Of a stretch of DNA of 64,000 bases, positions 10,303-64,000 are shown in pieces (the stretch's first letter is position 1; each line of letters starts with the position of its first letter). The translations under genes and the position numbers were made by a program. The DNA is from a virus (lineage: Duplodnaviria; Caudoviricetes): IMG/VR virus record IMGVR_UViG_3300023435_000009, one strand, 5' to 3'. The notes under the pieces are model-generated. The model was not told where the DNA came from. It made no database searches and worked only from the letters and a program-made list of their open reading frames with translations.

Positions 10303-10368
10303 TAAGTGTTCAACGGTGCTTTAAGATGTTGGTCATGTGCATGACTATCACGCAGGCAGAGGGGAAAA

Positions 10369-11577
10369 GTGCTTCTAGCTCATGAAATAAGGCTCCGTCC
10401 CTCCCGAACGCAGGAGGAATACTTTCGTCATGCCTGTGGTGTGGCGAGGTTCACGTACAACTGGGCGTTGGAACATTGGAAAAGCGCCTACGAGGCGGGA
10501 GAAAAACCTTCTGGATCTTCTCTCAAGAAACAGTTCAATGCTATCCGTCGTGAGAAGTTTCCCTGGACTTATGAAGTTCACAGGGACTGTACAGCCCAGT
10601 CTTTCACGCAACTCCAAAAGGCGTTCACGCATTTTTTCCATCGTATGAAAGCGGGTCGAAAACCAGGCTACCCCAAGTTTAAAAAACGAGGTGGGTGCAA
10701 GGACTCTTTCTACATAGCTAATGACCGATTCCGATTAGACAACAAACGTATCCACTTACCCAAAATAGGATGGGTCAGGTTGCGTGAAGTCCTACGTTTC
10801 GAGGGTATGATCACCAGTGCTATCGTCAAGCGTGTAGCTGACGCCTGGTTCGTTGTAGTACAGGTCGATGTCGGTGACTATCGACGTGACCGCATTGCCA
10901 ATAGTGAGGTCGGTGTCGATTTGGGTATCAGATCCTCTGCTACACTCTCCACCGGGGAGCATATTCAAGGACCAAAGGCCTTGAAAAAGAACCTGAGGAA
11001 GTTGCAACGGGAGTCCCGTTGGCATTCCCGCAAACAGAAGGGATCAGCAAATCGCCGTAAATCGACAATGAAATTGGCTCGATTGCACCGTCGGATCGGT
11101 TACGTCCGATCCGACTATCTGCACAAACTGAGTACAAGGCTCTGTCGTGAGAACCAAGCGATAGGGATCGAGGATTTGGCTGTACAGAACATGGTTCGTA
11201 ATAGGCGGTTGAGCCGCCACATCGTGGATGAGGGATGGGGGGGGTTTCGACGGCAGATCAATTATAAGGCGGTCATCTTTGATGACGTGGTCGTTGTTCA
11301 TGATCGTTTTTACGCTTCGTCGAAGACCTGTTTTTTGTGTTGTGAAAAGAGGGCTAAGTTAAGCCTATCCGAGCGTACCTTCAAGTGCGCCTGCGGTTGG
11401 GAAATTGACAGAGATGTCAATGCCGCTTTGAACTTACTACCGTGGGTTACACGGGAAGTTACGCTTGTGGAGAAGGAAGCGCTGGTTTTGGCATTAGCTG
11501 AAACGAAACTGCCTTTGATGAAGCAGGAACTAACCCCTACGCCTTTGTGCGTGGGGGAAAGGTATCAGAAGGCCTAG
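10369..11577 (+). CDS. tnpB: TnpB RNA-guided endonuclease (IS200/IS605/IS607 OrfB-type), no adjacent transposase
   Basis: N-terminal HTH_OrfB-like AHEIRLRPS...ACGVARFTYNWAL; RuvC-I VGVDLG, RuvC-II IGIEDL, zinc ribbon CFLC...CACG, RuvC-III DRDVNAALNL. Visibly more AT-rich than the flanking genes. Confidence 0.95.
   Translation: MLLAHEIRLRPSRTQEEYFRHACGVARFTYNWALEHWKSAYEAGEKPSGSSLKKQFNAIRREKFPWTYEVHRDCTAQSFTQLQKAFTHFFHRMKAGRKPGYPKFKKRGGCKDSFYIANDRFRLDNKRIHLPKIGWVRLREVLRFEGMITSAIVKRVADAWFVVVQVDVGDYRRDRIANSEVGVDLGIRSSATLSTGEHIQGPKALKKNLRKLQRESRWHSRKQKGSANRRKSTMKLARLHRRIGYVRSDYLHKLSTRLCRENQAIGIEDLAVQNMVRNRRLSRHIVDEGWGGFRRQINYKAVIFDDVVVVHDRFYASSKTCFLCCEKRAKLSLSERTFKCACGWEIDRDVNAALNLLPWVTREVTLVEKEALVLALAETKLPLMKQELTPTPLCVGERYQKA
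11439..11571 (+). ncRNA. Putative TnpB omegaRNA (reRNA) scaffold overlapping the 3' end of tnpB
   Basis: It lies in the non-conserved tail after RuvC-III, where TnpB guide scaffolds are known to sit. Hairpins GTTTTGGC-ATTA-GCTGAAAC and CCCCTACGC-CTTTGT-GCGTGGGGG are present. The 3' 93 nt are repeated at 22578-22669. Boundaries are approximate. Confidence 0.75.
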
Positions 11578-11804
11578 TGGAGATCCCTAAAGAAATTCAG
11601 GACTTGCTGGACAAACTCGGGGTGGACCCTGGGGCCTGGGGTGAGATGGAAGGGCACGCTGCCACTCCTCCCCTGATGCAGCGTCAGGCTGAAACTCTCG
11701 TCAAGCTCCGCACCTTCCTGGAGACTATGGTGGCCCAGGATCAGGCCGCATTGTCGGGGCTGCATGAACAGTTGGCCCGACTGAAACACGGTGGGGGATC
11801 CTGA
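11577..11804 (+). CDS. Small hypothetical coiled-coil protein (75 aa, GTG start)
   Basis: GTG overlaps the tnpB stop (TAGTG), and its own stop overlaps the next ATG (TGATG). The C-terminal half is heptad-like. Confidence 0.7.
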   Translation: MEIPKEIQDLLDKLGVDPGAWGEMEGHAATPPLMQRQAETLVKLRTFLETMVAQDQAALSGLHEQLARLKHGGGS

Positions 11805-14698: not shown

Positions 14699-14707
14699 GA
14701 GATAATC

Positions 14708-21899: not shown

Positions 21900-21991
21900 G
21901 CCGTCCATTGATGCGCCTATAAATTCGGTAGGGTGAGGTCTAGTCTGAAAGAAGTTGGGTTTGGGGTTACAGACTGTGGAGAGGGGACACA

Positions 21992-22516
21992 ATGGTTTTA
22001 CGTGAGAAAGTGCTCAAGTTGGCCCACGACCGGCCAGAATTTCGGAAGTACCTTGTTCCTTTGTTGAGAAGGTGTGCTGCTTCGACTCCCTCCTACCAGG
22101 AGTACGTGGACAAGAAGAGACAGAAGAATGAGCGTCCTCTCTCCAAGGATAAGTGGGAGAGGAGGGTGCTGCGCAACCGGGGGATCTCTGAGGGCCACGA
22201 AGAGTGGAAGAAGGACGAAGCGGCCAAGAAGGACCTGAAGAAGACGGATAAGTCCGACACCAAACGGAAGGACCGAAAGGAATTGTCCGATAAAGTTGTG
22301 AAATCCAGGGGTCTCAAGGATAAGGATCTTGAAGAAGTTCAGGCCTATCAGAAGAAGAATGTGAAGCCGGGTCAGAAGGGCAAATTGAAGCCCTGGGAAC
22401 TCAAAGCTAAGTTCTTGGCAAAGGCCAGCCCTGAAACGAAAGAACGGATGAAGGGGCTGAACAACCAGGAGTTCATGGCGGTTCTCAATGCTATCATGGA
22501 TGAGGACGAGGGTTAA
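21992..22516 (+). CDS. Highly basic, Lys/Glu-rich hypothetical protein (174 aa)
   Basis: SD-like GAGGGG upstream; K-rich; codon use matches the other phage genes. Confidence 0.75.
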   Translation: MVLREKVLKLAHDRPEFRKYLVPLLRRCAASTPSYQEYVDKKRQKNERPLSKDKWERRVLRNRGISEGHEEWKKDEAAKKDLKKTDKSDTKRKDRKELSDKVVKSRGLKDKDLEEVQAYQKKNVKPGQKGKLKPWELKAKFLAKASPETKERMKGLNNQEFMAVLNAIMDEDEG

Positions 22517-22577
22517 CCCAGTTTTTAGCCAATGAGGTAGGAGAACGTTTCTAGGGTTCTTGACAGTGTGTAACGGG

Positions 22578-22669
22578 GCGCTGGTTTCGGCATTAGCTGA
22601 AACGAAACTGTCCTCGTTGGAGTAGGGGCTAATTCCTACGTTTTTGTGCGTGGGGAAAGGTAGCAGAAG
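22578..22669 (+). ncRNA. Orphan copy of the TnpB1 omegaRNA 3' scaffold (no tnpB attached)
   Basis: My by-eye alignment gives 78/93 identity to 11479-11571, with both hairpins still able to pair. It lies in the intergenic gap immediately before ATG 22672. Confidence 0.75.
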
Positions 22670-22671
22670 CC

Positions 22672-25686: not shown

Positions 25687-25698
25687 AACGGGGGCATC

Positions 25699-33495: not shown

Positions 33496-33506
33496 GGGTA
33501 GGGGAG

Positions 33507-40750: not shown

Positions 40751-40867
40751 TCGGTGAGTTGGTTATAAGGATCCCTGGTTAGGCGTAGCATGGAGGACAA
40801 ATAGGCATTTGGCTTTTTATTTGAAGACACCCTCACTAGGACGTGACGGGGGGGAAATACAGACTAG

Positions 40868-42256: not shown

Positions 42257-42270
42257 AGGAACAGTGACGG

Positions 42271-47571: not shown

Positions 47572-47580
47572 AGGTGACCG

Positions 47581-48372: not shown

Positions 48373-48382
48373 GGAGATAGAG

Positions 48383-48658
48383 ATGCGGATCACAATGGAC
48401 GACCTGGCCAACAGCACGAACCTGATCAGGGTTCTAGATGCTGAAGGTAACCAGATGGGCTGCTTGCACTGGGTGAACCTCGTAACCCATGAGTGCGGAC
48501 AGGCTGTTTTGGGGGAGCCCCAGTTGATCCAGGCAGGAACGTCTGAGTTTCCTGTGTCCACTAATGAGCGCCGGGTCCTGACCAATCCCGATGGTACTGT
48601 GAAGACGCAGGTCGTGAAGTACAGTCGGATCGAGATTACCGCCCGACAGGCACAGTAG
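48383..48658 (+). CDS. Small hypothetical protein (91 aa)
   Basis: SD AAGGAG at 48371-48376, then ATG 48383 (MRITMDDL...). The track's upstream start lies inside the previous gene. Confidence 0.65.
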   Translation: MRITMDDLANSTNLIRVLDAEGNQMGCLHWVNLVTHECGQAVLGEPQLIQAGTSEFPVSTNERRVLTNPDGTVKTQVVKYSRIEITARQAQ

Positions 48659-48667
48659 GGGTAGTGC

Positions 48668-49705: not shown

Positions 49706-49706
49706 A

Positions 49707-52700
49707 ATGGCTAATAAGGACTATGGCAGCGGGGTTTCCCGGACACTGGATGCTTACAGGCGGCAGTTCCGGCATGTCGTTTGGCAGAAAGGTCGCCCCC
49801 CACTCGATTCTGAGTTATCGCTTCAGGACGACATTTCCTCCGAGATGTCTAAGGAACTTGTCAGCACGATGCTCCCTTCTGGGTTTTTCATGGACCCGAC
49901 CAGGACTGTGCAGGACTACCAGACGGATCCCCTGTGGGCAAACCAGATTAAGCTGGGCAACCCTCGGGTACCCTTTGGTTCCGGCGAGGCTGCGGAGCAG
50001 GATCCGGTTCTGTGGGCGAACGTCAATGGCTGGGTCATTCCTGTTTGTGGGTCCACCACGGTCGAGGGTGACCTTGCCAACATCATCAAGTTGTATCCGC
50101 CGCCCGAAAGTGACACACGGATAGACTTCATTTTCCTTGAGGCATGGGCCACTCGGGTAGACGCCAACCCTTCCACGGTGAACAAGCCATCCGCTTCTAC
50201 CATCTGGAAGTTCGGAAACACCAAGTACGGCGGCACCAATCTGGCTGACGATCTTGAGGATCCCACCATCGGTTACGAAACCACGGCTCGGGTCCAGATC
50301 CAGTACAGGCTCAGGGTTCACGGACAGGGCACCGGCCTCGGGGCTTCGGTGGCACTGGACGTTTATCCCGAGGGTTTGGATGACCCCAACGTGCTCGGAC
50401 AGGGCACGGCAGCCCTTCCGGTCGGTGGTGACAACTTCGTCAATATGCGTGAGGCGCTGGGTGACCCCAGCCTCTGGCGTGCAGGTTCAGGGGATCCTAA
50501 CAACTCTCTCGGCACGATCGATGGCTACACCTATGCTGTCCCGGTCTGTGCCATCTTCCGCCGTTGCTCCAACGTCTATATGGCGGTCAACACGGCAGGT
50601 AATCCGAACCACAACGGTGCGTTCAACAGGACGCCCAGCAGCAAGTTCCTCCCGGACCCCCTCTTGGGAGCACGAGTGCTGTTGCAGGCAACCCTCACCA
50701 ACGACCTGTCCCCGACTGACGCTTTGGACCCCGCCGGGGCCGATGCGATGGTGAACGTCACGAACTTGAACGGTTGTGGCTTGGAGGACACGCACCACGT
50801 CCTTACCAGCGTCTTCCTGGTGCTGGAGAACGAGATCGTTGGGATTAGCGCACTGGACCTTGTAGCCGGTACGATCACCATCCCTGCCGGTGGTAGGGGT
50901 CGGTACGGAACGGCGGCTGTGGGGCACGCAGCGGCCACTGAGGTAGGGTTTTTCAACACCCGCCCGGATGGGTTGTACTCGGACCAGGTCGCTGCCCAGG
51001 ACATTATGGACATGCGCCATGCTGTCAATCCCAACGACTGGGACTTTGGCAGGCTCCTGGAGCACAACGTCGCTGCACTCCTCAAGGGAGACTTGCACGC
51101 CACCTGGAAACACGCTGCGGCAGGCAACACCCAGGGGCCTGAAACCCACGAGATCACCTACCTCTATGGGGACGGTTCCATTGCTGTTCCGAACCACACT
51201 GAGGCTGCGGATGGCCCGGACGGGATCCGTACCATCTGGTCGGACGCAGCGACCATCCAGCCGGACGTGACGGTCCTTCTGAATAACGAGGCGATCCAGG
51301 ACGGCGGGAACGTCGGACTGACCAACGCCAACACCTTCACCTCCGGGGCGGGTTTCGCCTGGGACGTGGGAGCCGGGTTCTACCCCAGTGGCTTCATGAA
51401 TGTGTTCGGACAGCCTGCGACCGATGTCTTCTGTAACGGCACCACCCTCTTGCTCTTTACAGGTGGACTGGCCGGATCGGGAGGTGCTCGGGCAACCTTC
51501 AGGGACGGGGACACCAGGGCTGTGCGGGCCGTGACCCCCAAGGAGTACTGGAAGTCAGGGTACCCCATTGTGGACCCGGCCAACGGCAATCAGCACCCAG
51601 TCACGTTGCGTTTCCTGGAGGAGCGGGCCAACGAACAGCCTCCGACCGCTCTCAGCAGCGACGCACGGAAGGCTCGTCACGTTGGACCCTTCTCCCCCTA
51701 CCGGGAAACGAACTTCGAGAAGCCCTTCATCGTACTCGGTGGGATGTTGCGCCCGGAGATGCGTATCACGGCGGTGGCCACTGCGGATATGACAACGGTG
51801 GGTACCGTTAGTACCATCGACGTGGGTATCGATTTTGATGCGCTGGGTGATTACTACTCCTTGGACGCTGCTGGAAACATCGCCAACGATCCGACTGCTG
51901 TTTCCAGTCCTCTGCTTCGGGGCAAACGCACTCTCTACGGGATGCTTACGGCGGATGGGACGGACTACTCGGGGTACTCTTCCGAGGTCTACGTTGTCAT
52001 TTATGGTGACAACGCCAGCAACCAGAACAATGGTTGCTGGAAGGTGATTGGTGCTGGAACGGTGCCCTACACGGCGTCCACACCCTCCGCAGCCACCGAG
52101 ATCCGGGTTGTTTCCGTGTGTGCAGAGTTCACGGCGTTCGACAGTGCCACGGGCAACACCGTAACGGTGGAGTTCCGGTCCCAGGAGACCAACGCTGACG
52201 ACGTGTCAAGCTACAACACGAAGGTCGCTGATATGGCCATCGTGCTGACGGACATCGGTGGTCTGACCGAGCATCCGTGGAAGCGGGAGTACCTCGGCCA
52301 CGGCTACAACTACGACATCTCGATGCCGTTCGTAGCGGCTCGTGCAGCGGTCGAGTCACAGCTTCTGATCAGCATGGCGCTGCTCTACCATCCGGGTCGG
52401 GGTGGTATGGTGCGTATCCCAGACGAACTGGTCCGCTTCTCCATGAAGGGGGGCACCACGGACACGAACGGGGCCTACCTCCGGCAGAGCCCTGCATCCC
52501 TTGACACGACCTTCAGTGCGGTGGGGACACCCACGGACGAGACCAACTGGCAACCCAGCCACGTCCAGCTTTGGAACCGTCTGCCGGGTCTCGGTTGGAA
52601 TGCCCCCCTCGCCCCCAACTACGGTGGGGAGGTGATCGGGTACACCGAGCAGGATCGGGAGAACGAACTGTTCTTCGACCGGGGTTCCAAGACCGTCCTG

Positions 52701-55700
52701 TTCCGTCCCTTCCGGGATCGCCGGATGACCCTCCAGGAACAGTCCTTCGTGGACGTCATCGCTCCCGTACCGATTCCGGCGAACAGGTGCCTGTTCGGGG
52801 AGTACACCTACAACCTGACGAGTGTGGCGAAGGACGCTTTGCTGATCTGGACGGGGGCGGCTGGTTCCCAGGACAGCACGGGCAAAAAGATGGGTTTCCC
52901 CGTCCCTTACGAATTCATGCCCCGGTTCGGTCGGCAGGACATCCCTTACTACGTAGACCAGGCGAGTGGGACCGGCCCCTTCCTGAGCGGGATCAATCAC
53001 CTGTTTAAGGATGAGGCAGATACGACCAGCCCGGTATTCAACATCATCGGTGGGCACCCCACGGCTGCGAGTGTCCCGGCGGTCTACTCAATGTTCTTCG
53101 CCACGGGCAACATCCCGGACGGTGGCGGTGGCGTCCTCCCCTGGGAGTATGGGCGCAGCGGAACGATGCCTGCGTACATGCAGACGCTGCCCTTCATTTG
53201 GGCACGGCGGGCACCCGAGGACATCAACACGGTCAACCCCTTTGCTCAGGGCGTCGTGAACAAATTGGCTGCGGTCAACTCCTCGGATTTCGGTAAGGGT
53301 CTCAAGGGCATTCAGCTTCCGCCCTACTACGGGATTGCACGCCTTTACGGTGTGTACGATGTCAGGGACTTCGATGCGAAGGGTGGCCGGAGCTTCCAGG
53401 CCAACCGGATTGACCCTGAGACGGATCCGGTCCCGAACCTTCTCAGGCAGGATGCCACCCAGCAGACGCTGTTCATCCTCCAGGGTGGGGCTAAGGACTT
53501 TGGCGAGAGCGACGGAGACCATACTTACCTGATTCCCTTCAACGCCCTTGATATCACACGTGCTGTGGGTTACATCGACGGGGACGTGCCGGAGGACTAT
53601 CACTACGTTGTGGAATGCTCGACGTTTGGTTTCGCTCGGGGCTTCATCGACCAGAACAACCTGGTCACCGTGAGGAAGTTTGGTGGCACGGGCCTCGGCC
53701 TTGATGGTACTCCGGGCGGCAACGTAGACGGAGATGACCTGGAGATCCGGGGGGTCCACATGGTCCTCCCCTGCCCGGCTGCGTACCACGATCAGTTCTA
53801 CGCAGCGTACAACCGCACGGTCTACCAGGGCGACCCCTACATGAGCCGTGGTGGTGCGAAGACCGAGTCCGACTACGAGACTCGCTATGGACAGCTTTCG
53901 GTGGGCGCTCAGTATGCGATGCGGATGCCTATCGAGCAGTACGACGCCAATGGGGATTTCGTTCCTGAGATCCCGAATGCTCATGCGTTCGAGGTGCTGG
54001 CGTCCCTGGACTTCTACACGACGATGGGTACCGGCAAGATCGGTGGCCAACTCTATCCGGGCACACCCCTGGATGTGGGTTTCACCGAAGCCAACGCTAA
54101 GTCTGCTCATCGGTACATGGATGAGGTGGACGTTCCCTTCCGGGTTCTCCCCCGTGCCTTCACCGAGGGACAGAAGACCAATACGTCCAGGGCGTCCCTC
54201 GACTTGTACTTGCTCTACAATGCTGGACTGAACCCCACGGCAACGGACTATTTCACGCTTCGGATCGGACTCTTGGACGGCACAGCGGTGGACCTGTGGG
54301 CCGCTACCGACGCCAACGCCATCATCCTTCAGGCAGCCCCCTGGAATATCCCAGCCGAGGACATTTTCACAGTAAACGAGACCAGGACGATTCGAGAGGT
54401 CGGTACGGGGAGCCTTAGTTTCCCCAACCCCACGGAGATTGCACCGGGACAGGTCATCACGGACACTGTCACGGTGGCGGGTGCCTCCCTCATGGCAGAT
54501 TCTGTGCTCGTCAGCACGGACACGTCACCTCTGGTGAAGGTCCGGGGTTGGGTGTCGGCAGCGGACACAGTGACCCTCCAGTACTTCAATATCTGGACAC
54601 CGGCTGCCTTCCTTTCTGATCCGGGGGGGGATCCCTCGGTTGCTGATGTTGCTGGGGTGACGCTTCCCGTTGTAGGAGCAGGAGCGATGCTTCCCGTTGT
54701 CGCCCTCACGGCACTCCCAGGGGCAGCCCCGACGCAGAAACTGGTGGTGCATTACAGCACCGTTGCCGCTGAGACTGGTCTTCTGTTTACCGCAGAGGTG
54801 ACAGCACCGGGCACAGTTCAGGTGTTCGTACACAACCCCACGGTTGGTCCCCTCGGTGGTGGTGCCCCCGTGACACTGCGCTTCGGCATGCTCGACCCCA
54901 TGGACCTGACCCTCTACACCTATGACATGGGTGGGGAGACGACCTTCGTGCGGGTCTTGAAGACGGACATCACGGGGGGGCTGGCTGAAAGGACTGTCGT
55001 GTCGTTGGCTGATAGGATCAATGGACACTCCAAGCTGAAGCAGACGATCTCGGCTACGCCGCAGGAGCAGATGTCCTTTGGGGGCAACAAGGTCCGCATC
55101 GAAGCGATTCCCACGGGGAAGGCCGGGCGAGGTGTCACCGTTGCGATGCGTGGTGTGGGAGCCGTCAACCCGCAGTCGATTGCTCGGATGGAGATCCCCC
55201 ACGACAACACGGTTGTCCGAGTCCAGGGCCAGTCAATGTCCCCGCTGTTGGGTGGGGACAACCTTCCGATGAATGCGGGGGACGGGACGAGCCAGATCAA
55301 CATCACAGGAATGACGGAGAGGCTCCCGATGGGTGCCCTCCTCCAGGATAGCGACTTCCTGTGTGAGAACCCCTTGAACGATACCGCTTCTGCGGTCAAG
55401 ACCAGTCCGACTGGTCCGAGGCCCATCCAGACGGTGATGCCCTTGACTTCCGAGGGCGGCGAGTACACTCGCTTCTTTGGTGAGCCTGGGGAACTCCTGG
55501 CCCTGGCTGACGGGTCCATTTCGGTGACGAGTTTCGGTGCCTGGCGTCAGACCAGCGAAGGTGGTGGTGGACCCACGGGTTCCCGCCGGTTCCGTTTGTA
55601 TCGGGGTGGTGGATCAGCCTTCACCCTCAGCGGGGACTACCCTGGCGCTCCCATTGACTGGGTGTCCGACACCTTCCCCAGTGCTTTTGAGCCTGTCCTC

Positions 55701-56021
55701 AAGGGCGGGATCCTGGGGTGCCGTGCAATGCTCGTGCGGAACTACCGTGAGGACGTGACTCCCTCGGGCAGCACCTACAAGGTGACGGACGGGGACGAGA
55801 TCCAGATGGTGGTGATCACCAACGGCATCCTGGGTGATGGTCAGTCACGGACTGAGGGTGTCAACCTGGGTGGGAGCATCTCACCTTCGGGCTATGGTGA
55901 GGGCTGGGCAGCAGCCGACCGCTTCCGTATCGACGGGAAGCCTATGTTCAAGGGTTACAGCAGAGCCGTTCCGAATCCTGCTGACGTTGAGCTTGTAGTG
56001 TACCCTGACGAGCAGAGGTAA
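49707..56021 (+). CDS. Very large virion structural protein, paralog B (2104 aa)
   Basis: Start placed at ATG 49707 after SD GGAGG. VVWQKGRPPLDSELS motif; collinear similarity to 33507-37121. Confidence 0.75.
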   Translation: MANKDYGSGVSRTLDAYRRQFRHVVWQKGRPPLDSELSLQDDISSEMSKELVSTMLPSGFFMDPTRTVQDYQTDPLWANQIKLGNPRVPFGSGEAAEQDPVLWANVNGWVIPVCGSTTVEGDLANIIKLYPPPESDTRIDFIFLEAWATRVDANPSTVNKPSASTIWKFGNTKYGGTNLADDLEDPTIGYETTARVQIQYRLRVHGQGTGLGASVALDVYPEGLDDPNVLGQGTAALPVGGDNFVNMREALGDPSLWRAGSGDPNNSLGTIDGYTYAVPVCAIFRRCSNVYMAVNTAGNPNHNGAFNRTPSSKFLPDPLLGARVLLQATLTNDLSPTDALDPAGADAMVNVTNLNGCGLEDTHHVLTSVFLVLENEIVGISALDLVAGTITIPAGGRGRYGTAAVGHAAATEVGFFNTRPDGLYSDQVAAQDIMDMRHAVNPNDWDFGRLLEHNVAALLKGDLHATWKHAAAGNTQGPETHEITYLYGDGSIAVPNHTEAADGPDGIRTIWSDAATIQPDVTVLLNNEAIQDGGNVGLTNANTFTSGAGFAWDVGAGFYPSGFMNVFGQPATDVFCNGTTLLLFTGGLAGSGGARATFRDGDTRAVRAVTPKEYWKSGYPIVDPANGNQHPVTLRFLEERANEQPPTALSSDARKARHVGPFSPYRETNFEKPFIVLGGMLRPEMRITAVATADMTTVGTVSTIDVGIDFDALGDYYSLDAAGNIANDPTAVSSPLLRGKRTLYGMLTADGTDYSGYSSEVYVVIYGDNASNQNNGCWKVIGAGTVPYTASTPSAATEIRVVSVCAEFTAFDSATGNTVTVEFRSQETNADDVSSYNTKVADMAIVLTDIGGLTEHPWKREYLGHGYNYDISMPFVAARAAVESQLLISMALLYHPGRGGMVRIPDELVRFSMKGGTTDTNGAYLRQSPASLDTTFSAVGTPTDETNWQPSHVQLWNRLPGLGWNAPLAPNYGGEVIGYTEQDRENELFFDRGSKTVLFRPFRDRRMTLQEQSFVDVIAPVPIPANRCLFGEYTYNLTSVAKDALLIWTGAAGSQDSTGKKMGFPVPYEFMPRFGRQDIPYYVDQASGTGPFLSGINHLFKDEADTTSPVFNIIGGHPTAASVPAVYSMFFATGNIPDGGGGVLPWEYGRSGTMPAYMQTLPFIWARRAPEDINTVNPFAQGVVNKLAAVNSSDFGKGLKGIQLPPYYGIARLYGVYDVRDFDAKGGRSFQANRIDPETDPVPNLLRQDATQQTLFILQGGAKDFGESDGDHTYLIPFNALDITRAVGYIDGDVPEDYHYVVECSTFGFARGFIDQNNLVTVRKFGGTGLGLDGTPGGNVDGDDLEIRGVHMVLPCPAAYHDQFYAAYNRTVYQGDPYMSRGGAKTESDYETRYGQLSVGAQYAMRMPIEQYDANGDFVPEIPNAHAFEVLASLDFYTTMGTGKIGGQLYPGTPLDVGFTEANAKSAHRYMDEVDVPFRVLPRAFTEGQKTNTSRASLDLYLLYNAGLNPTATDYFTLRIGLLDGTAVDLWAATDANAIILQAAPWNIPAEDIFTVNETRTIREVGTGSLSFPNPTEIAPGQVITDTVTVAGASLMADSVLVSTDTSPLVKVRGWVSAADTVTLQYFNIWTPAAFLSDPGGDPSVADVAGVTLPVVGAGAMLPVVALTALPGAAPTQKLVVHYSTVAAETGLLFTAEVTAPGTVQVFVHNPTVGPLGGGAPVTLRFGMLDPMDLTLYTYDMGGETTFVRVLKTDITGGLAERTVVSLADRINGHSKLKQTISATPQEQMSFGGNKVRIEAIPTGKAGRGVTVAMRGVGAVNPQSIARMEIPHDNTVVRVQGQSMSPLLGGDNLPMNAGDGTSQINITGMTERLPMGALLQDSDFLCENPLNDTASAVKTSPTGPRPIQTVMPLTSEGGEYTRFFGEPGELLALADGSISVTSFGAWRQTSEGGGGPTGSRRFRLYRGGGSAFTLSGDYPGAPIDWVSDTFPSAFEPVLKGGILGCRAMLVRNYREDVTPSGSTYKVTDGDEIQMVVITNGILGDGQSRTEGVNLGGSISPSGYGEGWAAADRFRIDGKPMFKGYSRAVPNPADVELVVYPDEQR

Positions 56022-56023
56022 CA

Positions 56024-56440
56024 ATGAGCAATCGAGCACAAGCCTTGGCGAAGAAATACCTAACCGCTGAGACCACACGGCAGGCGGGTTACGGTGTGGC
56101 CCCCAAGGTCTACGCCATGGTCGACGCCCACACCCTGGTTCTGTGGACGAGTTTCGCCAGTTTCGGGCGAGCACACCACCTCATTTCGCAGCTTAATTGG
56201 TGGGACAGTGCGTTGTACAAGGTGGGGCGTGCAGCACGGCTCATCTTGGAGGACAACAGCATACCCAGCAAGTTCGGTCGCGAAGTGTTTTTCGAGCCGG
56301 ACAAGCACCAGCCCCGAGAGATGCAGGCGTACGTCAGGCTGCGCCCCCAGACGGGAAGCTGGGATAGGGATCAGATTGACTTGATCAAGTCCGTTGTCCA
56401 TCACCCTTCGGTAGCAGATGGCCTGAGGGATATGTTCTGA
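56024..56440 (+). CDS. Hypothetical protein (138 aa)
   Basis: Coupled ORF with GAGG SD. Confidence 0.7.
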   Translation: MSNRAQALAKKYLTAETTRQAGYGVAPKVYAMVDAHTLVLWTSFASFGRAHHLISQLNWWDSALYKVGRAARLILEDNSIPSKFGREVFFEPDKHQPREMQAYVRLRPQTGSWDRDQIDLIKSVVHHPSVADGLRDMF

Positions 56441-56793
56441 TGCCCTTCATCTGCAGAGACAAGATCAACCCCGCTGTGCGTAAACCCTATGAGGGAGCGT
56501 ACAAGGGACAGCTTCGGCAGGCTCTGACCAATCCCGGTCTCACTGCCGAACAACGAGAACGCATCAAGGATCAACTGGCCGAGGTGGGACAACCGAAGGT
56601 TTACCGGGTGGACACGCCTCCAAAGCCCGGTGCCATCTCATTCGAAGAACCCCTCCCTCCCAGGAAAATCCTTGAGACGTTGAAGAGGGTCGATTTGCTG
56701 GTCATCGCTCGTAAGCTGCAGATCCCGACGAACGGGACGAAGGCTGCGATCATTGAACGGTTGATATTGGCCACACACAATGGAGCTTCATGA
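56440..56793 (+). CDS. Small protein with C-terminal SAP/Rho-N-like helix-extension-helix domain (117 aa)
   Basis: LKRVDLLVIARKLQIPTNGTKAAIIERL matches the SAP/Rho_N pattern; TGATG coupling. Confidence 0.65.
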   Translation: MPFICRDKINPAVRKPYEGAYKGQLRQALTNPGLTAEQRERIKDQLAEVGQPKVYRVDTPPKPGAISFEEPLPPRKILETLKRVDLLVIARKLQIPTNGTKAAIIERLILATHNGAS

Positions 56794-56844
56794 AAGGCGA
56801 ACAAAACCGAACATGCGGCTTCGAGGCTAAGGAGGAGTGTTAAG

Positions 56845-57060
56845 GTGAACCACCAGAATAAAAATGGTGGAACTGAAGGTGAGACTCCTATGTTCTCCGG
56901 GTTGTCTTTAAGGACAGCTACCCTGAGATTGGTCCAGTCTCAGGCTCTAGCAGTATCGAAGGACGAAACAAGACCTGAAATGGTTGGTAACATCTTCGAT
57001 ACAACCAGAGGCCCGGAAACTTTGCCGAGGACAACAATTTCCCTTCGGGAGGTGTCTTAA
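56845..57060 (+). ncRNA. IscB omegaRNA scaffold, copy 1 (putative guide immediately 5', 56823-56844)
   Basis: Directly upstream of iscB. Stems CCACC/GGTGG, GTTGTC/GACAGC, CTGAGATTG/CAGTCTCAG, a CTTCGG tetraloop and ACTTTGCCGAGG. 214/216 identical to 63341-63556. Confidence 0.85.
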
Positions 57061-58251
57061 ATGACACAGAAAATCTTTGTGATTGACGCTGACGGGAAGC
57101 AGCTACTTCCCACTCACCCAGCACGCTCTAGAAAATTGTTGCGAGCTGGTCGTGCCCAGGTACACCAAGTGGTGCCGTTTACGATTCAATTGAGCCGTGT
57201 TGTTGAGAATCCTGTTGGAGCCTTCACTGTTGGTATCGATGATGGAGCGAAACACGTTGGTATTGCAGTTGTAAACAGGCATCAGAAAGAAGTTGTTTTC
57301 CGAGGCACAATTCGTTTGAGACAAGACGTTTCGAGGAAAATGACACAACGGGCAGCGTATCGACGAACGAGGAGAAGTCGGTTACGCTTTCGGGCACCGA
57401 GATTCAGGAACAGGGGTAGAAGGGGCTTTCTGCCCCCAACGATCCGACAGAAGAAAGAATCCATTTTGAGAGTGCTTGTCGATCTCAAAAAGAGGTTGAA
57501 CATCATCGAGGCTACGATTGAAGAAGGTCAGTTTGACACAAGTAGTTTGGTTGCAGGACGAAAATTGACAGGGGCAGAATTTCAGAAATCTGAATACAGT
57601 AAGGGGGGTTTTCGAGCTAAGGTGCTGTGGCGAGACAAATACAAGTGTCAACATTGTGGTACCTCTGATCGCCTTCAAGCCCACCACATTCAGTTTAAGA
57701 GTCGAGGTGGTGGGGATTCCCCTCAAAATGGGCTTACTCTTTGTGGGACATGTCATGCGGATCTTCATGAAGGATTGTGGGTGCTGACAAAGAAGCCTCG
57801 TCCTTTTAGGTATCCTGCTCATCTACAAGCAGGTAAGAATTACCTGAGGGAGCTTCTTCATGGGATTGGCTTAAGAATCGAGGTTTGTTTCGGGTGGATG
57901 ACTGCCAAGTGGCGGAAATGTCTTGAGTTGGAGAAAGCACATGACTTAGATGCCGTTGCTATGGTTTGTCGGGGCTGCAAGCCCTACTTGTGTCTAAGGT
58001 CTTTTTTGGTTATCCCGAAGAGAACGAAGGTATGGGAAAACAATCCCACGAAAAAGCGTTTTGAGTTTCGGGGTTTTAGACATTGGGATTTGGTGAAGGC
58101 TCGTCATCGTACTCGTGGTGTAGTTGTTGGGTCCATAAGGAGTCTAAAGAAGACTACCCTTACTTTACGAACGAATTGGGACAGTAACTTTCCTGTTTCG
58201 TATAACAAATCCCAAGTTTTGTGGCGCTTTGGGGGTCTTGTTTATGTCTGA
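57061..58251 (+). CDS. iscB: IscB RNA-guided endonuclease (PLMP, split RuvC, RRXRR bridge helix, HNH)
   Basis: QLLPTHPARSRKLL (PLMP-like), GIDDGAKHVGIAV (RuvC-I), RRTRR, IEEGQFD (RuvC-II), CQHC...AHHI...NGLTLCGTCH (HNH), AHDLDA (RuvC-III). Confidence 0.95.
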   Translation: MTQKIFVIDADGKQLLPTHPARSRKLLRAGRAQVHQVVPFTIQLSRVVENPVGAFTVGIDDGAKHVGIAVVNRHQKEVVFRGTIRLRQDVSRKMTQRAAYRRTRRSRLRFRAPRFRNRGRRGFLPPTIRQKKESILRVLVDLKKRLNIIEATIEEGQFDTSSLVAGRKLTGAEFQKSEYSKGGFRAKVLWRDKYKCQHCGTSDRLQAHHIQFKSRGGGDSPQNGLTLCGTCHADLHEGLWVLTKKPRPFRYPAHLQAGKNYLRELLHGIGLRIEVCFGWMTAKWRKCLELEKAHDLDAVAMVCRGCKPYLCLRSFLVIPKRTKVWENNPTKKRFEFRGFRHWDLVKARHRTRGVVVGSIRSLKKTTLTLRTNWDSNFPVSYNKSQVLWRFGGLVYV

Positions 58252-58268
58252 CAGTGTTGAGCACTGTC
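58250..58268 (+). other. Perfect 7-bp hairpin at the iscB 3' end (candidate IS200/IS605-type subterminal end structure)
   Basis: GACAGTG-TTGAG-CACTGTC overlaps the iscB stop codon. Confidence 0.5.
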
Positions 58269-58286
58269 TTTGAAGGAGGATAGAAA

Positions 58287-59012
58287 ATGAGCAACGTTCG
58301 GAAACTGGCGCTTTTTGCTCTCATCTGTTTTGGCTCCATGGTACTCATGGGTCAGGCACCTTCCGTTGAGGAACTTCCGGTTCCGGCGGCGGAGATTGCA
58401 GAGAATGCGCCCGCAACTCCGGCGGAAGCTGCCCATGAGGTTGCTCCTGTCGATGTCCCCGTGATTGAGGAGGCTCCTATTGCAGAGGAGGCTCCGGTTT
58501 TGGTGGTGGTCGAGGAAACCCCTGAGGCTGCTCAGGTAGCCGAGGAGGAAGCATCCGCAGAGGAGACCCCGGAGGAAGCCCCCGTAATGGCGGAGGAAAC
58601 CTCTGAGATCGTCCTTGTGGCTGAAGAGGAAGCACCCGCAGCAGAAGAGAAGGAAGCATCGGCGGAGATCGTCGTACCTCCCGAGACCGATGCGGAAGCG
58701 GGGGAAGCTATCGGGACGGCAATTGATTTGGCAGCGCACGGTGCTTGGACGGCATTTATCGGCTTCATCCTGATGCTGGTCGTCTGGTTTCTGCGGCGGA
58801 TCAAGATTCTGGCGAAGATCCCGAAGAAGGCTGTCCCGTGGGTGACTGTTATATTGGGGTGCCTGACAGCGGTCGGACTGGTATTGGCTGGTGGCCAGTC
58901 CTGGGTCGTGGCTCTCACGCAGGGTATTGGAGGCGGCTTGGCTGCTCCGGCAATGTGGGAGTTGGGTTTCAAACACTTGTCTGCGGGGGCCTCTAAGGTC
59001 GAGTCGGCCTGA
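58287..59012 (+). CDS. Membrane protein: signal peptide, acidic Glu/Ala/Pro stalk, holin-like C-terminal TM bundle (241 aa)
   Basis: SD AAGGAGG; hydrophobic N-terminus; EEAP-type repeats; three hydrophobic segments ending in GGGLAAPAMWELGFK. Confidence 0.6.
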   Translation: MSNVRKLALFALICFGSMVLMGQAPSVEELPVPAAEIAENAPATPAEAAHEVAPVDVPVIEEAPIAEEAPVLVVVEETPEAAQVAEEEASAEETPEEAPVMAEETSEIVLVAEEEAPAAEEKEASAEIVVPPETDAEAGEAIGTAIDLAAHGAWTAFIGFILMLVVWFLRRIKILAKIPKKAVPWVTVILGCLTAVGLVLAGGQSWVVALTQGIGGGLAAPAMWELGFKHLSAGASKVESA

Positions 59013-59062
59013 CGGAACTACAGGGACGAACCTGGAGGCGGGTAAGTCCTTTTCCTTGATAT

Positions 59063-59107
59063 GCTACGGGGTGGTCGCGCTCGATACGGGAGTGGCCACC
59101 CCGTAGC
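59063..59107. terminator. Long GC-rich hairpin at the convergence of plus- and minus-strand genes; likely terminator
   Basis: GCTACGGGGTGGTCGC...GTGGCCACCCCGTAGC forms a 16-bp stem (with G-U pairs), followed by a T-rich tract on the plus strand. Confidence 0.6.
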
Positions 59108-60071
59108 TCTCTTTAATTATCTTTAGCACAATGTCTTTGTAGATGGCAGACACCTCCCAGTACCGCTGTGTTCGTTCCCAAGCCCGATGGCGATAGGGAA
59201 CCTGGAGTTTGAGCTGGGCAATGAAGGAGTCGTTGTAAGGTGTCACTATTCGCAATTTCCCATCCGTTCCCTCGGTTACGAAGACCGGATCCCATGCCAG
59301 GATGACCTTGAGCAGATTCATTTCCAACTGAACGGGTAGGCGGGGTTTCGGGTCAGCGGGTTTGGTTTTGTGCCGGAACTTCATGAGGTCGGACCAGCGG
59401 CGGTAGGGGACTTCGTAGAGGCCCTTCGTTCCGCACACCAGGGACCGGGGCATATTGACACCCAGGACACACAGGAAGTGCTCCTCCTCGGATTTGGGTA
59501 CCCACCAGCCGACTTTGTGGCCCCGCTTGATCCGGGTCTTGGTGACGTTCCCGATCAGACCGATTTCCTCATCGATCAGGTGTTTGGCTCCCTCGATGAA
59601 ACTCATATCCCTGCGGATTTTGCCCTTGTCCGAGATGAACGCTTCGAGATGGTCCCCTTTGTCTAGGATCATCGCCTCGGTACGATCCACCTCCAGCTTG
59701 TCTGCCAGTTCCGTGTACCCGAGGGACCGGATCAGGGCGCAGCACTTGAAGACCTCGTCCCGGTCGGCGTAGTGGGCTGACGCCCAGTAGACCAGGAGGT
59801 TGCTGGCTTTGCGGGCGTTGGTGTGATCGTTGTTCACCAGGGTCAGGAAGGCATCGATGAGGTGGTCCGGCAGGTTGGACACGGCGAGCAGGCCGAGAGT
59901 GTCCATCACCTGTGCCTCGGTCGGAACGTGAACGGGGTCGTAGTATCTGCGACTACACACGGGTCCGATGCCCCGTTCTACCGATTCAGCGTCGGTCAGG
60001 TGGGCACGGCACACGCAGCAGTGTGAAGCCGTGACCTGTGCGAGAACGTGGTGGGAAAGGGTGGAGTCCAT
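59064..60071 (-). CDS. DUF6011-like Zn-finger protein with C-terminal HARP-like domain (335 aa)
   Basis: CCVCRAHLTDAESVERGIGPVC; C-terminal TPYNDSFIAQLK...RAWERTQRYWEV. SD AGGAGGT precedes ATG 60071. Confidence 0.7.
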   Translation of the reverse strand: MDSTLSHHVLAQVTASHCCVCRAHLTDAESVERGIGPVCSRRYYDPVHVPTEAQVMDTLGLLAVSNLPDHLIDAFLTLVNNDHTNARKASNLLVYWASAHYADRDEVFKCCALIRSLGYTELADKLEVDRTEAMILDKGDHLEAFISDKGKIRRDMSFIEGAKHLIDEEIGLIGNVTKTRIKRGHKVGWWVPKSEEEHFLCVLGVNMPRSLVCGTKGLYEVPYRRWSDLMKFRHKTKPADPKPRLPVQLEMNLLKVILAWDPVFVTEGTDGKLRIVTPYNDSFIAQLKLQVPYRHRAWERTQRYWEVSAIYKDIVLKIIKESYGVATPVSSATTP

Positions 60072-60081
60072 CTCAGACCTC

Positions 60082-60420
60082 CTAAAAGCTGTAGTCGAAG
60101 AACCGGCTCCGGTACCCAATGTAGAAGAGCTGGGTGCCGCCGACCTGTCGCCAGTCGCCGTTCTTGCGGCGACTCAGAGTGACCTTGCGGCCCTCATGAT
60201 TCGGCTCGTAGTCGTAGTCCTGGCAGTCGGACATCCCGTTGTCGTCAGTGCGGATGGATCGGTCGGCCTGCACCACGCAGCGCCTGCCATTCGGACTGAC
60301 CTCGACCACTGTGTAGGGCTCACGGTCGGACCCTATGATCATGGTGGCCCCCATTCCGATCTTGGGGTTTGGGTTGTTTCCCCGGTACATACTGTGGACG
60401 TTGGCGGTGTCGATGCTCAT
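60082..60420 (-). CDS. Phage hypothetical protein (112 aa)
   Basis: SD AAGGAG; GMGATMIIGSDREPYTVVEV pattern of small phage accessory proteins. Confidence 0.75.
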   Translation of the reverse strand: MSIDTANVHSMYRGNNPNPKIGMGATMIIGSDREPYTVVEVSPNGRRCVVQADRSIRTDDNGMSDCQDYDYEPNHEGRKVTLSRRKNGDWRQVGGTQLFYIGYRSRFFDYSF

Positions 60421-60566: not shown

Positions 60567-60588
60567 CAAATGACCCCGTAGGAGAAAC

Positions 60589-61218: not shown

Positions 61219-61227
61219 GAGGGAGCA

Positions 61228-62136: not shown

Positions 62137-62139
62137 TTG

Positions 62140-62790
62140 ATGGCATTCACACTGATCTACCGTAGGAAGGGCAAGGGCAAACGGCCAGCGCCCGCCGAGG
62201 GTGACCCTACAAACATCAGGGTAGGGGATTCCATCTCCTATTGGGATCCGGTGTCCGCCTTTTCCGCTGGGACAGTCGAAAAGATCAACACGCTGGCTGG
62301 GGTACTTCGTATCGGTGCTCTGATGTACGGGGACGTGATACTTCGCCCTCCCCGAAGGCTCTCCTTCTCGGAAATCATCAAGGCGGAACGACCCAGCAAC
62401 ATCCCGGTACCTGTGGACAGCCCCACGGACGCCGACGTGGCCGAAATCAACGCCACCCCCACTCCCATGCTGCTCTCGGACGAAAACGCCTCTGAGGCAT
62501 CCCCTACCCCTACAGAGACCCCTGCAGAGCCTGTCCCGGAGATCCTCCCCGAGGAAGGTACTCCCGCCGAAGTTGCACCCCCGAAACCCAAGCCGAAGAA
62601 GCGAGACCCCAAGGTGATCGCTGTGGGCACCGTTATCGAGAGGCGCTACGGGGGAAGCATGATCAAGGTGCTGGTGAAGGAAGAGGGTTTCGAGTGTAGG
62701 GGGGTGACCTATCCGAACCTGGATAAGGTAGCGGAGTCCCTCACGGGCACCAGCACCAACGGACGATCGTTCTTCGGTGTAAAAGGCTAG
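62140..62790 (+). CDS. Protein with C-terminal DUF2924-like domain (216 aa)
   Basis: IERRYGG...VLVKEEGFECRGVTYPNLDKVAESLTGTSTNGRSFFGV matches the DUF2924 pattern. Confidence 0.65.
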   Translation: MAFTLIYRRKGKGKRPAPAEGDPTNIRVGDSISYWDPVSAFSAGTVEKINTLAGVLRIGALMYGDVILRPPRRLSFSEIIKAERPSNIPVPVDSPTDADVAEINATPTPMLLSDENASEASPTPTETPAEPVPEILPEEGTPAEVAPPKPKPKKRDPKVIAVGTVIERRYGGSMIKVLVKEEGFECRGVTYPNLDKVAESLTGTSTNGRSFFGVKG

Positions 62791-62904: not shown

Positions 62905-63339
62905 ATGAAGATGGCTATCCTGTTCCATGAGGGGTGTGTGATCGACAAACGCCTTATTGAAAGGCTACTCCGACGAGTGGTCCGTAAAGACCCCCCCAAG
63001 GTACTCCTCACGGACGCCAAAATGCCGGAATCCTCCTGTGTGCGGAGTTGTGGCAAACGGCTTGGGCTGGAGGTATGGGACTCTGAGGAGCTTAGAGGAG
63101 AACCCACTTTCGGGGGGCGGATCCGAGATTGGATTTGGGGTAGAGTCTCCAGCAGGCAATTGCTGATTCAGTCTTGTGACGTTGCGGTGGTGTTTTGGGA
63201 TGGGTCGATCAGCGTGAAAAGCCTGGTCTTGGAGATCCTTGCGGCAGACCGAAAGGTCATCCGTGTGAACGGCCTCGGTCACCTTTCCGGCCAAACAGCC
63301 GGTGCAATGATCGAGGTTGAGGCTAAGGAGGAGTGTTAA
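62905..63339 (+). CDS. Degenerate SLOG/YspA-like protein (144 aa); its last 6 codons and stop are the flank shared by both IscB loci
   Basis: CDVAVVFWDG...VIRV resembles SLOG C-termini; it ends EAKEEC* encoded by GAGGCTAAGGAGGAGTGTTAA. Confidence 0.5.
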   Translation: MKMAILFHEGCVIDKRLIERLLRRVVRKDPPKVLLTDAKMPESSCVRSCGKRLGLEVWDSEELRGEPTFGGRIRDWIWGRVSSRQLLIQSCDVAVVFWDGSISVKSLVLEILAADRKVIRVNGLGHLSGQTAGAMIEVEAKEEC

Positions 63340-63340
63340 G

Positions 63341-63556
63341 GTGAACCACCAGAATAAAAATGGTGGAACTAAGGGTGAGACTCCTATGTTCTCCGGGTTG
63401 TCTTTAAGGACAGCTACCCTGAGATTGGTCCAGTCTCAGGCTCTAGCAGTATCGAAGGACGAAACAAGACCTGAAATGGTTGGTAACATCTTCGATACAA
63501 CCAGAGGCCCGGAAACTTTGCCGAGGACAACAATTTCCCTTCGGGAGGTGTCTTAA
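63341..63556 (+). ncRNA. IscB omegaRNA scaffold, copy 2 (putative guide 63319-63340)
   Basis: Differs from copy 1 at two positions only (CTGAAGGT vs CTAAGGGT). Confidence 0.85.
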
Positions 63557-64000
63557 ATGACACAGAAAATCTTTGTGATTGACGCTGACGGGAAGCAGTT
63601 ACTCCCCACTCACCCAGCACGCTCTAGAAAACTACTACGAGCTGGTCGTGCCCAGGTACATCAAGTGGTGCCCTTTACGATCCAACTGGTCCGTGTTGTT
63701 GAGAATCCGGTTGGAGCCTTCACTGTTGGTATCGATGATGGAGCGAAACACGTTGGCATAGCGATGGTAAACGAGCACACCAAGGAAGTAGTCTTCAGGG
63801 GTACTGTTCGGTTACGTCAGGATGTTAAGCGAAAAATGACACAACGGGCAGCGTATCGACGAACAAGAAGAAATCGGAAGCTCCGACATCGCCCAGCCAA
63901 GTTTTTGAACCGAGGAAGGAAGGGTTTCCTGCCCCCAACTATTCGACAGAAGAAGGATAGCATACTTCGGGTAGTTAAGGACTTAGGAAAAGTTCTCTGC
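63557..64000 (+). CDS. iscB: IscB copy 2 (3'-truncated by the window edge; absent from the ORF track)
   Basis: My translation: MTQKIFVIDADGKQLLPTHPARSRKLLRAGRA...GIDDGAKHVGIAMVNEHTKEVVFRG...RRTRRNRKLRHRPAKFLNRG..., open to the window end. Confidence 0.92.
   Translation, partial: MTQKIFVIDADGKQLLPTHPARSRKLLRAGRAQVHQVVPFTIQLVRVVENPVGAFTVGIDDGAKHVGIAMVNEHTKEVVFRGTVRLRQDVKRKMTQRAAYRRTRRNRKLRHRPAKFLNRGRKGFLPPTIRQKKDSILRVVKDLGKVLC

Follow-up and report, generated by a model that had tools for sequence, protein, structure and literature searches.

In a salt-lake phage with a genome of 528 kb, the operon for tail and baseplate harbours seven selfish-DNA insertion features at gene junctions, as seen in a window of 64,000 nucleotides (the whole stretch of DNA that was analysed) from a 109-kb IMG/VR record. 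They comprise two TnpB elements, two IscB elements, one remnant made up of guide RNA only, and two classical homing endonuclease genes. An earlier note on this DNA had reported the same seven features, and each of them was recovered by sequence and profile searches at or near its reported position. The features, with the positions predicted for guides and the candidate TAM, are as follows.

10299-10303, plus strand: candidate TAM (TTGAT) of the tnpB1 element, overlapping the TGA stop codon of the giant gene
10304-11574, plus strand: tnpB1 element, with a left end that includes a hairpin (10304-10368), the ORF (10369-11577) and an omegaRNA scaffold (~11436-11574)
11575-11590, plus strand: predicted tnpB1 guide position, the first bases past the end of orphan homology, covering GTG 11577, the start of a 75-aa ORF
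22559-22671, plus strand: orphan mini-element, composed of TTGAC, a left end of ~18 nt and ~93 nt of omegaRNA 3' scaffold, ending right at ATG 22672
32488-33495, plus strand: free-standing PD-(D/E)XK endonuclease gene (ROS/MucR zinc finger, NUMOD3-like module, T7-endonuclease-I-like domain); the inserted DNA is 32489-33506
40806-42264, plus strand: tnpB2 element, with the ORF (40868-42256), an omegaRNA within the 3' end of the ORF, and a right end that closes with AAAGGAACAG
42265-42280, plus strand: predicted tnpB2 guide position, covering ATG 42271 of a 1766-aa beta-helix gene
48373-49706, plus strand: HNH cassette, with a 91-aa ORF (48383-48658) and a 345-aa protein (48668-49705) that has HNH modules and HTH-like repeats, two of each
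56766-56781, plus strand: predicted iscB1 guide position, the 16 nt that precede the homology boundary, within the final codons of the 117-aa gene upstream
56782-58270, plus strand: iscB1 element, with an omegaRNA (56782-57060; 5' hairpin 56782-56822), the ORF (57061-58251) and then a hairpin; right boundary approximate
63271-64000, plus strand: iscB2 element, with an omegaRNA (63271-63556) and an ORF from 63557, cut by the window end; left boundary ~63271

When the window was compared with related phage contigs (L004 to L010), a check that the earlier note had proposed, six of the seven sites were found as uninterrupted junctions, and the features there are hence insertions. The tnpB1 element is missing from L004 and L005, in both of which the giant gene and the small ORF are direct neighbours, the endonuclease gene at 32488 from L006 and L007, the tnpB2 element from L006, L007 and L009, the HNH cassette from L007, L009 and L010, and the iscB1 element from L009 and L010. 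The iscB2 junction is covered by none of the available relatives, so its status as an insertion is not directly demonstrated. The GC content of the elements is 0.47-0.53 (0.497 for the tnpB1 element), as compared with 0.586 for the remaining window. Placement at gene junctions, co-orientation with the operon, intact nucleases and the absence of a transposase in view, all described in the earlier note, also held. As a correction, the plus-strand run is broken between iscB1 and iscB2 by two minus-strand genes (59064-60420).

TnpB1 scored 274 bits with the NCBIfam guided_TnpB profile (cut-off 100) and exceeded the cut-offs of the Pfam families HTH_OrfB_IS605, OrfB_IS605 and TNB. It aligns over 350 residues with ISDra2 TnpB (Karvelis 2021, PMC8612924; Nakagawa 2023, PMC10097598) at E = 2.5e-57, and its RuvC D-E-D motifs (GVDLG, IEDL, DRDVNAALN) and CxxC...CxC zinc finger align to ISDra2-type structures among the PDB matches. 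As in ISDra2, the omegaRNA lies over the 3' end of the ORF and the right end, TTGAT immediately precedes the left end, and flanking DNA 3' to the right end would serve as the guide. In the tnpB1 clade the structure of the omegaRNA is conserved, with 33 pairs of which 16 show compensatory changes (RNAalifold, six sequences). Unlike ISDra2, tnpB1 is found without tnpA and in a phage late operon, its right end bears a Shine-Dalgarno-like motif and adjoins the next start codon, and a mini-copy of its left end and omegaRNA lies 11 kb away.

TTGAT is the TAM used by ISDra2 TnpB (PMC10097598), and homology between tnpB1 and the orphan begins immediately after TTGAT in the former and TTGAC in the latter. 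Since L040-L042, which are more distant members of the clade, have no TTGAY motif upstream, this sequence comparison lends moderate support to TTGAT as the TAM of the tnpB1 element. A bracketing of tnpB1 by AGAAGG repeats was also considered and is less likely, given that TCTGAAACTTGA is homologous to flank DNA in L005.

TnpB2 scored 99.8 bits with guided_TnpB (NCBIfam; cut-off 100), across nearly the full profile, and 28.9 with Pfam TNB (cut-off 26.3), and it matched the transposase family PHROG 506 at 1e-20. Its homologues of 60-65% identity carry a TnpB annotation in Gammaproteobacteria; a single-sequence search of the PDB gave no match. Its RuvC D-E-D motifs are GVDKG, AEDL and SDENAARN, of which the first and third align to those of tnpB1; the zinc finger is degenerate. 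The ends of the element were set by alignment to a paralogue in L037 (84-86% identity), homology to which stops at 42264.

In a self-BLAST, the orphan (22578-22669) showed 84% identity over 93 nt with the 3' end of tnpB1, and its left end resembles that of tnpB1 in alignment. Three of the four covarying omegaRNA helices are retained, with pairs from alignment column 47 onward, and the fold has a z-score of -2.4. Judged by its sequence, the orphan is an internally deleted, protein-less mini-copy of the tnpB1 element. A scaffold of ~116 nt or less is sufficient in ISDra2 (PMC10097598), and the orphan could give TnpB1 a second guide.

IscB1 scored 266.7 bits with the guided_IscB equivalog (NCBIfam; cut-off 175) and aligns full-length to HfmIscB (9k2z), with the motifs GIDDG, IEEG, HNH and HDLDA. 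The full iscB2 gene encodes 403 aa with RRXRR and HNH domains on the parent contig (L012), and its N-terminus is 86% identical to that of iscB1. Like the known IscB/HEARO systems (RF02033; HfmIscB 9k2z, OgeuIscB 7xht), those described here have the PLMP/RRXRR, RuvC and HNH architecture and, upstream of iscB, a structured RNA of 280 nt with HEARO helices (fold z = -4.5). In the Rfam scan no family reached its gathering threshold, HEARO was the sole sub-threshold family, and there was no TnpB-omegaRNA or RAGATH match. The HEARO scores of 37.9 and 39.9 bits (gathering 83; E = 1e-4 to 3e-4 for the whole window) set these RNAs apart from the known systems, as do the absence of tnpA, the presence of at least three copies in one phage genome, and a gene-conversion tract that homogenised the omegaRNAs of two otherwise diverged copies. 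The iscB2 match covers the full model, and since both architecture and position fit, the IscB omegaRNA is taken to be a diverged relative of HEARO.

Of the two protein-only genes, that at 32488 had been called a PD-(D/E)XK endonuclease, and the call is borne out by a T7-endonuclease-I-like domain that follows the zinc finger and the NUMOD3 module. The profile of its homologues matches T7 endonuclease I (3cae, 6.6e-10; 1m0d, 1.3e-9) and Ros (2jsp, 1e-5), all 35 homologues share the nuclease residues E232, D247, E264 and K266, 12 of them have NUMOD3, and the protein also has PHROG hits. The 'double HNH' of the earlier note proved correct as to the two modules: the 48668 protein matches PHROG HNH families over two stretches (1.8e-37 and 5.6e-36), and its translation shows two DH...N...CH motifs; Pfam gave no hit for it. 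The insertion, however, is not the HNH gene alone, which arrived with the 91-aa ORF.

Free-standing homing genes in phages, T4-like ones among them (Seg, Mob; HNH, PD-(D/E)XK types), are likewise intergenic, co-oriented and missing in relatives, and they join a nuclease domain to DNA-binding modules (zinc finger, NUMOD3, HTH). This kind of niche is also that of the OMEGA elements. Unlike such homing genes, the OMEGA elements find the target by RNA, and whether the element is present, not sequence polymorphism, separates self from non-self.

Guides of TnpB and IscB derive from the DNA that flanks the element, and element-free alleles are cut. The tnpB1 guide was placed by applying the known TnpB rule and the iscB1 guide by the IscB rule. 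The right ends of tnpB1, the orphan and tnpB2 lie 2, 0 and 6 nt before GTG 11577, ATG 22672 and ATG 42271, respectively, and with the elements in L037 and L029 included, there are five loci at which a TnpB-type right end is followed by the next start codon after 0-6 nt. These right ends carry a Shine-Dalgarno-like motif. The earlier suggestion that guides cover start codons or Shine-Dalgarno sites thus stands for the three TnpB-type elements, where the downstream start is covered, but not for the IscB elements, the left boundaries of which (56782 and ~63271) put the guides within the final codons of the genes upstream. Boundary 56782 was set by an alignment of iscB1, iscB3 and L032 and by loose ends of paralogues at that position. 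A 22-mer shared by the two IscB omegaRNAs (56823 and 63319) was considered as a common guide and rejected, being conserved also in L032, which is from a different phage, and base-paired within the fold and the HEARO alignment; moreover, homology between iscB1, iscB3 and L032 extends 41 nt further upstream.

The tnpB1, tnpB2, iscB1 and iscB2 elements are transposase-less IS200/IS605-type OMEGA modules. The sequences incline us, by a little, to the view that the tail and baseplate operon has been repeatedly colonised by selfish nucleases that persist and spread by homing; the elements probably persist by cutting element-free relatives. Each OMEGA module would supply an intact nuclease and its own omegaRNA, which co-orientation would allow to be derived from the operon transcript, with whatever DNA adjoins the element end as the guide. 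During co-infection, the nuclease would cut the element-free allele of a close relative, in which the TAM is joined directly to the guide-matching sequence (TnpB) or the guide-matching sequence to the downstream flank (IscB), and the element would be copied in by recombinational repair templated by the element-bearing genome. The occupied allele would be immune because the element parts the TAM from the target, and the Shine-Dalgarno-like motif of TnpB right ends would restore translation of the next gene. Only on rare occasions would new sites be seeded, by a trans-acting transposase.

The spread of an IS605 insertion through a plasmid population, dependent on TnpB but not on TnpA, is among the subjects of PMC13565253, which also discusses 'non-restorative homing' into co-infecting phages. 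The cut-and-copy step into the orthologous empty site of a co-resident replicon is the same in the proposal outlined there; here it is inferred solely from the genome anatomy of an uncultured phage.

Alternatively, these could be ordinary non-autonomous IS200/IS605 copies with a TnpA elsewhere in the phage or host, the nucleases serving only in restorative homing after excision, and purifying selection, together with a strand bias in single-strand transposition, accounting for the junction and orientation pattern. In agreement with this, members of the same families with precise, conserved ends occupy several unrelated sites (three IscB copies in the genome, L032 and L029; tnpB1 and the orphan; tnpB2 and L037), left and right ends retain subterminal hairpins like those that TnpA recognises, and some GenBank phage TnpBs adjoin TnpA. 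Copies at unrelated sites are beyond homing alone, so transposition must have occurred, with a transposase in trans at some time. The search for tnpA, extended beyond the window as the earlier note had advised, covered the 109-kb record and ~45 kb of loci; ~70% of the phage genome of 528 kb and that of the host lie beyond this scope, which also favours the ordinary-copy explanation. However, the 109-kb record gave no Y1_Tnp or Resolvase hit, and neither a Y1 nor a serine transposase adjoins the elements, so none of them is an autonomous IS200/IS605 or IS607 element in that record. A 485-kb relative with seven OMEGA nucleases gave zero Y1 hits and one sub-threshold Resolvase hit, which is not convincing as a transposase. 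There was also no transposase within 5-10 kb of five close homologues, and the closest homologues are all co-oriented within phage-like operons.

The age of the copies bears on the same alternative. Paralogues within the genome differ by a dS of 0.56-2.1 with dN/dS of 0.11-0.17 (tnpB2, 0.17), and iscB1 and its L032 homologue have a dN/dS of 0.05, from which the copies are old and functionally maintained, and ill-suited to a recent burst. The distance of 0-6 nt from right end to start codon at five loci is, in addition, tighter than selection against disruption alone needs. Ordinary non-autonomous copies are thus considered an unlikely explanation.

A second alternative, which we regard as improbable, is that the set is a domesticated arsenal, in which co-infecting relatives would be destroyed or shut out by the nucleases and the additional guide (marker exclusion), to the benefit of the phage itself beyond the spread of the elements. 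Homing endonucleases that mediate phage competition, as treated in PMC11620839, provide a precedent. The concentration of many elements in essential late genes, their fixation under purifying selection and the retention of the orphan guide would fit. In near-identical populations, look-ups with two flanking proteins (24 contigs per look-up) returned no empty allele among the matches listed, and the contigs listed carry tnpB1, iscB1 or iscB2 wherever those sites are covered. The elements therefore look fixed in these populations, and ongoing homing is not observable there, a point against the homing view. Purely selfish homing elements, however, equally predict fixation and purifying selection, and a 402-kb relative is without any of these nucleases. 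Each guide matches its own flank only, as no second target of the five predicted guides was found in the 109-kb record at up to one mismatch; nor do the guides match the available relatives, which are too diverged for cutting.

Logan contigs from four salt-lake DNA runs with a low share, mapped to 40001-60000, contained no joint bridging an element, at a depth of ~3x that is uninformative on absence. Loose ends at 56782, 57334-57381 and 42225 were attributed to cross-mapping of paralogues. Among the runs listed for the stretch, none was of RNA.

It is very improbable that the elements are inert relics or nuclease-dead, TldR-like regulators that repress, for example, a neighbouring gene start, since, although TnpB-derived transcription factors are known (PMC10705468) and guides overlapping start codons would suit repression, all RuvC D-E-D motifs, and the HNH motifs of IscB, are present, dN/dS is low across whole ORFs, and self-binding at the start codon is unexpected where the element parts the TAM from the target.

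The locus is a dense natural case of already known element types, and in it RNA-guided nucleases and classical homing endonucleases occur together within a single operon. The usual account of TnpB and IscB is that they help to prevent the loss of a TnpA-driven transposon, yet most natural copies are found without TnpA, and the role of such solo copies is under discussion. As co-infecting phage genomes recombine freely, a nuclease guided by RNA could spread by its own action, in the manner of classical homing endonucleases. We tentatively put forward, as a possibility that we doubt more than we credit, the joint proposal that a phage OMEGA clade consists of TnpA-independent, RNA-guided homing genes specialised for gene junctions, in which the stop codon of the upstream gene is the site of the TAM, the right end gives the ribosome-binding site, the guide covers the start codon and orphans add guides in trans. 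If true, megaphages would possess multi-locus, RNA-programmed marker exclusion against co-infecting relatives. The locus offers defined boundaries, empty-site relatives, and candidate TAMs and guides.

For annotation, it indicates that the late operons of giant phages can harbour many such inserts. The small 'ORFs' called across the omegaRNAs are probably spurious. No relatives of the 1004-aa gene were found among viral contigs. The start of the 2121-aa gene, given earlier as 49656, was corrected to ATG 49707.

A 109-kb IMG/VR record (CheckV completeness 21%) contains the window on its reverse strand; a metagenome contig of 528,260 bp, obtained from salt-lake samples, contains it as well. Positions 1-59012 hold one unbroken plus-strand series of very large genes, which is assigned as a tail and baseplate late module given the presence of a gp25-like sheath initiator, Baseplate_J, a beta-helix fibre and a holin-like protein. 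On the parent contig, the giant ORF that is open at its 5' end in the window (1-10302) comes to 3804 aa and has no Pfam match; several genes around it, 1000-2100 aa long, also lack annotation. A second plus-strand run, carrying iscB2, is set apart from the first by two genes:

59064-60420, minus strand, two genes between iscB1 and iscB2 (DUF6011; 335 aa and 112 aa)

A DUF2924 protein is encoded at 62137-62790, two genes upstream of iscB2, with no adjacent recombinase.

The seven features listed in the earlier note are real, each being backed by a profile, motif or sequence-identity match. TnpB1 has 3/3 Pfam TnpB domains, passes the NCBIfam guided_TnpB cut-off, and, when aligned to TnpB structures of the ISDra2 type, retains both the D-E-D residues and the zinc finger. 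TnpB2 is more diverged (guided_TnpB 99.8 bits vs a cut-off of 100; PHROG transposase, 1e-20) and includes the motifs GVDKG, AEDL and SDENAARN; its homologues at 60-65% carry TnpB annotation in Gammaproteobacteria. IscB1 scores above the guided_IscB equivalog cut-off and matches HfmIscB along its full length; IscB2, read on the parent contig, is 403 aa. The orphan omegaRNA, a guide-RNA-only mini-copy, is 84% identical to the tnpB1 3' end over 93 nt. The product of the gene at 32488 joins a zinc finger of the ROS/MucR type and NUMOD3-like motifs to a nuclease domain. This domain has invariant E, D, E and K residues and matches T7 endonuclease I by profile, which identifies the protein as a PD-(D/E)XK enzyme. 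The gene at 48668 encodes two HNH modules and two HTH-like repeats.

Insertion at gene junctions, as the earlier note proposed, was borne out by comparison with related phage contigs of 36-78% protein identity to the window. The tnpB1 site is covered by L004 and L005, and other sites by L006, L007, L009 and L010; the iscB2 junction lies outside the coverage of all relatives. Junctions are uninterrupted in the covering relatives at five sites (tnpB1, the PD-(D/E)XK gene, tnpB2, the HNH cassette and iscB1). The block at 21900-25698, between the 481-aa and 2030-aa genes, is strain-specific cargo, its 174-aa gene, orphan element and 1004-aa gene being entirely missing in L006, L007 and L008. The GC content of the elements is 0.47-0.53 vs 0.586 in the remaining window. 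In L006, the empty PD-(D/E)XK site has a spacer (6386-6435) encoding a 20-codon mini-ORF with a CxxC pair; this may be the footprint of a lost endonuclease gene. The HNH-cassette junction (48372/49707) is occupied by a different ORF of ~130 nt in the 402-kb relative L010 (2830-2970), and seems to be a hot spot for insertions.

Homology between tnpB1 and the orphan starts directly after TTGAT (10299-10303, overlapping the TGA of the giant gene) and TTGAC (22559-22563), respectively; it stops at ...CAGAAGG(C)C, leaving 2 nt and 0 nt to the start codon that follows. As TCTGAAACTTGA is homologous to L005 flank DNA, TTGAT is flank rather than element, as expected of a TAM, and TTGAT is the ISDra2 TAM (PMC10097598). 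The motif type recurs at two TnpB loci on L029, another phage contig, yet is absent at L040-L042, more distant members of the tnpB1 clade, and TTGAT is therefore graded a candidate TAM only. The tnpB2 limits, 40806 and 42264, were set by alignment to an 84-86% paralogue in the same genome (L037); AAAGGAACAG terminates both copies, with the downstream ATG 6 nt further. As judged by sequence, both TnpB families place an SD-like purine run immediately before the neighbour's start codon, which the predicted guide would span. RNAalifold analysis of six tnpB1-clade sequences gave 33 pairs, with compensatory changes in 16. The orphan retains the three 3' helices of this structure; in ISDra2, a scaffold of 116 nt or less suffices (PMC10097598).

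The proposal that guides cover start codons or SD sites thus holds for the TnpB-type elements, whereas the IscB guides are expected to be the ~16 nt that precede 56782 and 63271, which lie within the 3' portions of the genes upstream. Homology among iscB1, a third copy in the same genome (iscB3) and L032, a homologue at 78% carried by another phage, runs from GGAGCTTC at 56782 onward; upstream sequences are unrelated, and the paralogue contigs break exactly there. The 279-nt iscB1 leader (fold z = -4.5) has a 5' hairpin and HEARO-type helices; the iscB2 5' hairpin differs from that of iscB1, and HEARO, scoring below its gathering threshold, matches over the full model from 63271. A 22-mer common to 56823 and 63319 was rejected as the guide; with the element ends further upstream, and given the leader fold and HEARO match, it is scaffold. 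The IscB elements supply the last codons and stop codons of the upstream ORFs. Comparison of 56823-57260 with 63319-63760 revealed about 99% identity across the omegaRNA and first codons (to about 57100), decaying to about 68%. With an ORF dS of 1.85, this is a recent gene-conversion tract starting inside the omegaRNA. The 71-aa ORFs called over the IscB omegaRNAs (56845-57060, 63341-63556) are probably spurious calls on structured RNA.

The dN/dS values (0.11-0.17 at dS 0.56-2.1 for paralogue pairs within this genome; 0.05 for iscB1 vs its L032 homologue) indicate old nucleases under purifying selection. No Y1 or serine transposase was found in the 109-kb record, in agreement with the earlier note. 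The 485-kb relative LR745208.1 has six TNB matches and one RRXRR match, no Y1 match, and a Resolvase-like match of only 20.6 bits; OMEGA nucleases are absent altogether from the 402-kb relative. The closest homologues of tnpB1 (60-65%) and iscB1 (68-78%) are all found in phage-like operons, between genes and in the operon's orientation, and no TnpA occurs within 5-10 kb of them. Among 50,697 GenBank phage records, 412 have TnpB homologues, some adjoining TnpA, and 16 have IscB homologues.

We favour maintenance of the OMEGA elements by RNA-guided homing between co-infecting phages: guides would be taken from the flank and co-transcribed from the operon, and the target would be recreated only in an element-free allele. 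The anatomy matches the prediction of the established OMEGA mechanism, and the elements occupy the kind of setting typical of classical homing endonuclease genes in phages, with two such genes in this very operon. That these are ordinary non-autonomous IS copies moved by a transposase encoded elsewhere in the phage genome or in the host is less likely, though far from negligible; the families do occupy unrelated sites, indicating at least occasional transposition by a transposase in trans, and the transposase scan covers 109 kb of the 528-kb phage genome alone. Where near-identical contigs were examined (covering the tnpB1, iscB1 and iscB2 sites), all of them carry the elements, which appear fixed. 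The sequencing runs listed for this stretch included no RNA run. No Logan contig from four salt-lake DNA runs bridges an empty site in 40001-60000, at a depth (~3x) too thin to show absence, and the guides are unmatched in available relatives, which are too diverged.

TnpB is already known to be frequent in phages (PMC12607003), and a 2026 review (PMC13565253) considers it possible that "non-restorative homing" proceeds independently of TnpA into co-infecting phages or plasmids. Rather than presenting a new kind of element, the locus is therefore a natural case in which known kinds occur densely and are well resolved, its most interesting details being the junction-fitted architecture and the orphan guide. 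On the 51-kb phage contig L029 (1-21296), a replication module (DnaB, primase, Pol A, UDG) has three TnpB genes and one IscB gene between its own genes, all in the same orientation and without TnpA; two of the four are the closest relatives known for tnpB1 and iscB1. LAGLIDADG inteins in four large genes of the 528-kb genome, among them those for an SNF2 helicase and DnaB (L012:13340-20435, L037:1-7416), indicate that it is rich in selfish nucleases generally.
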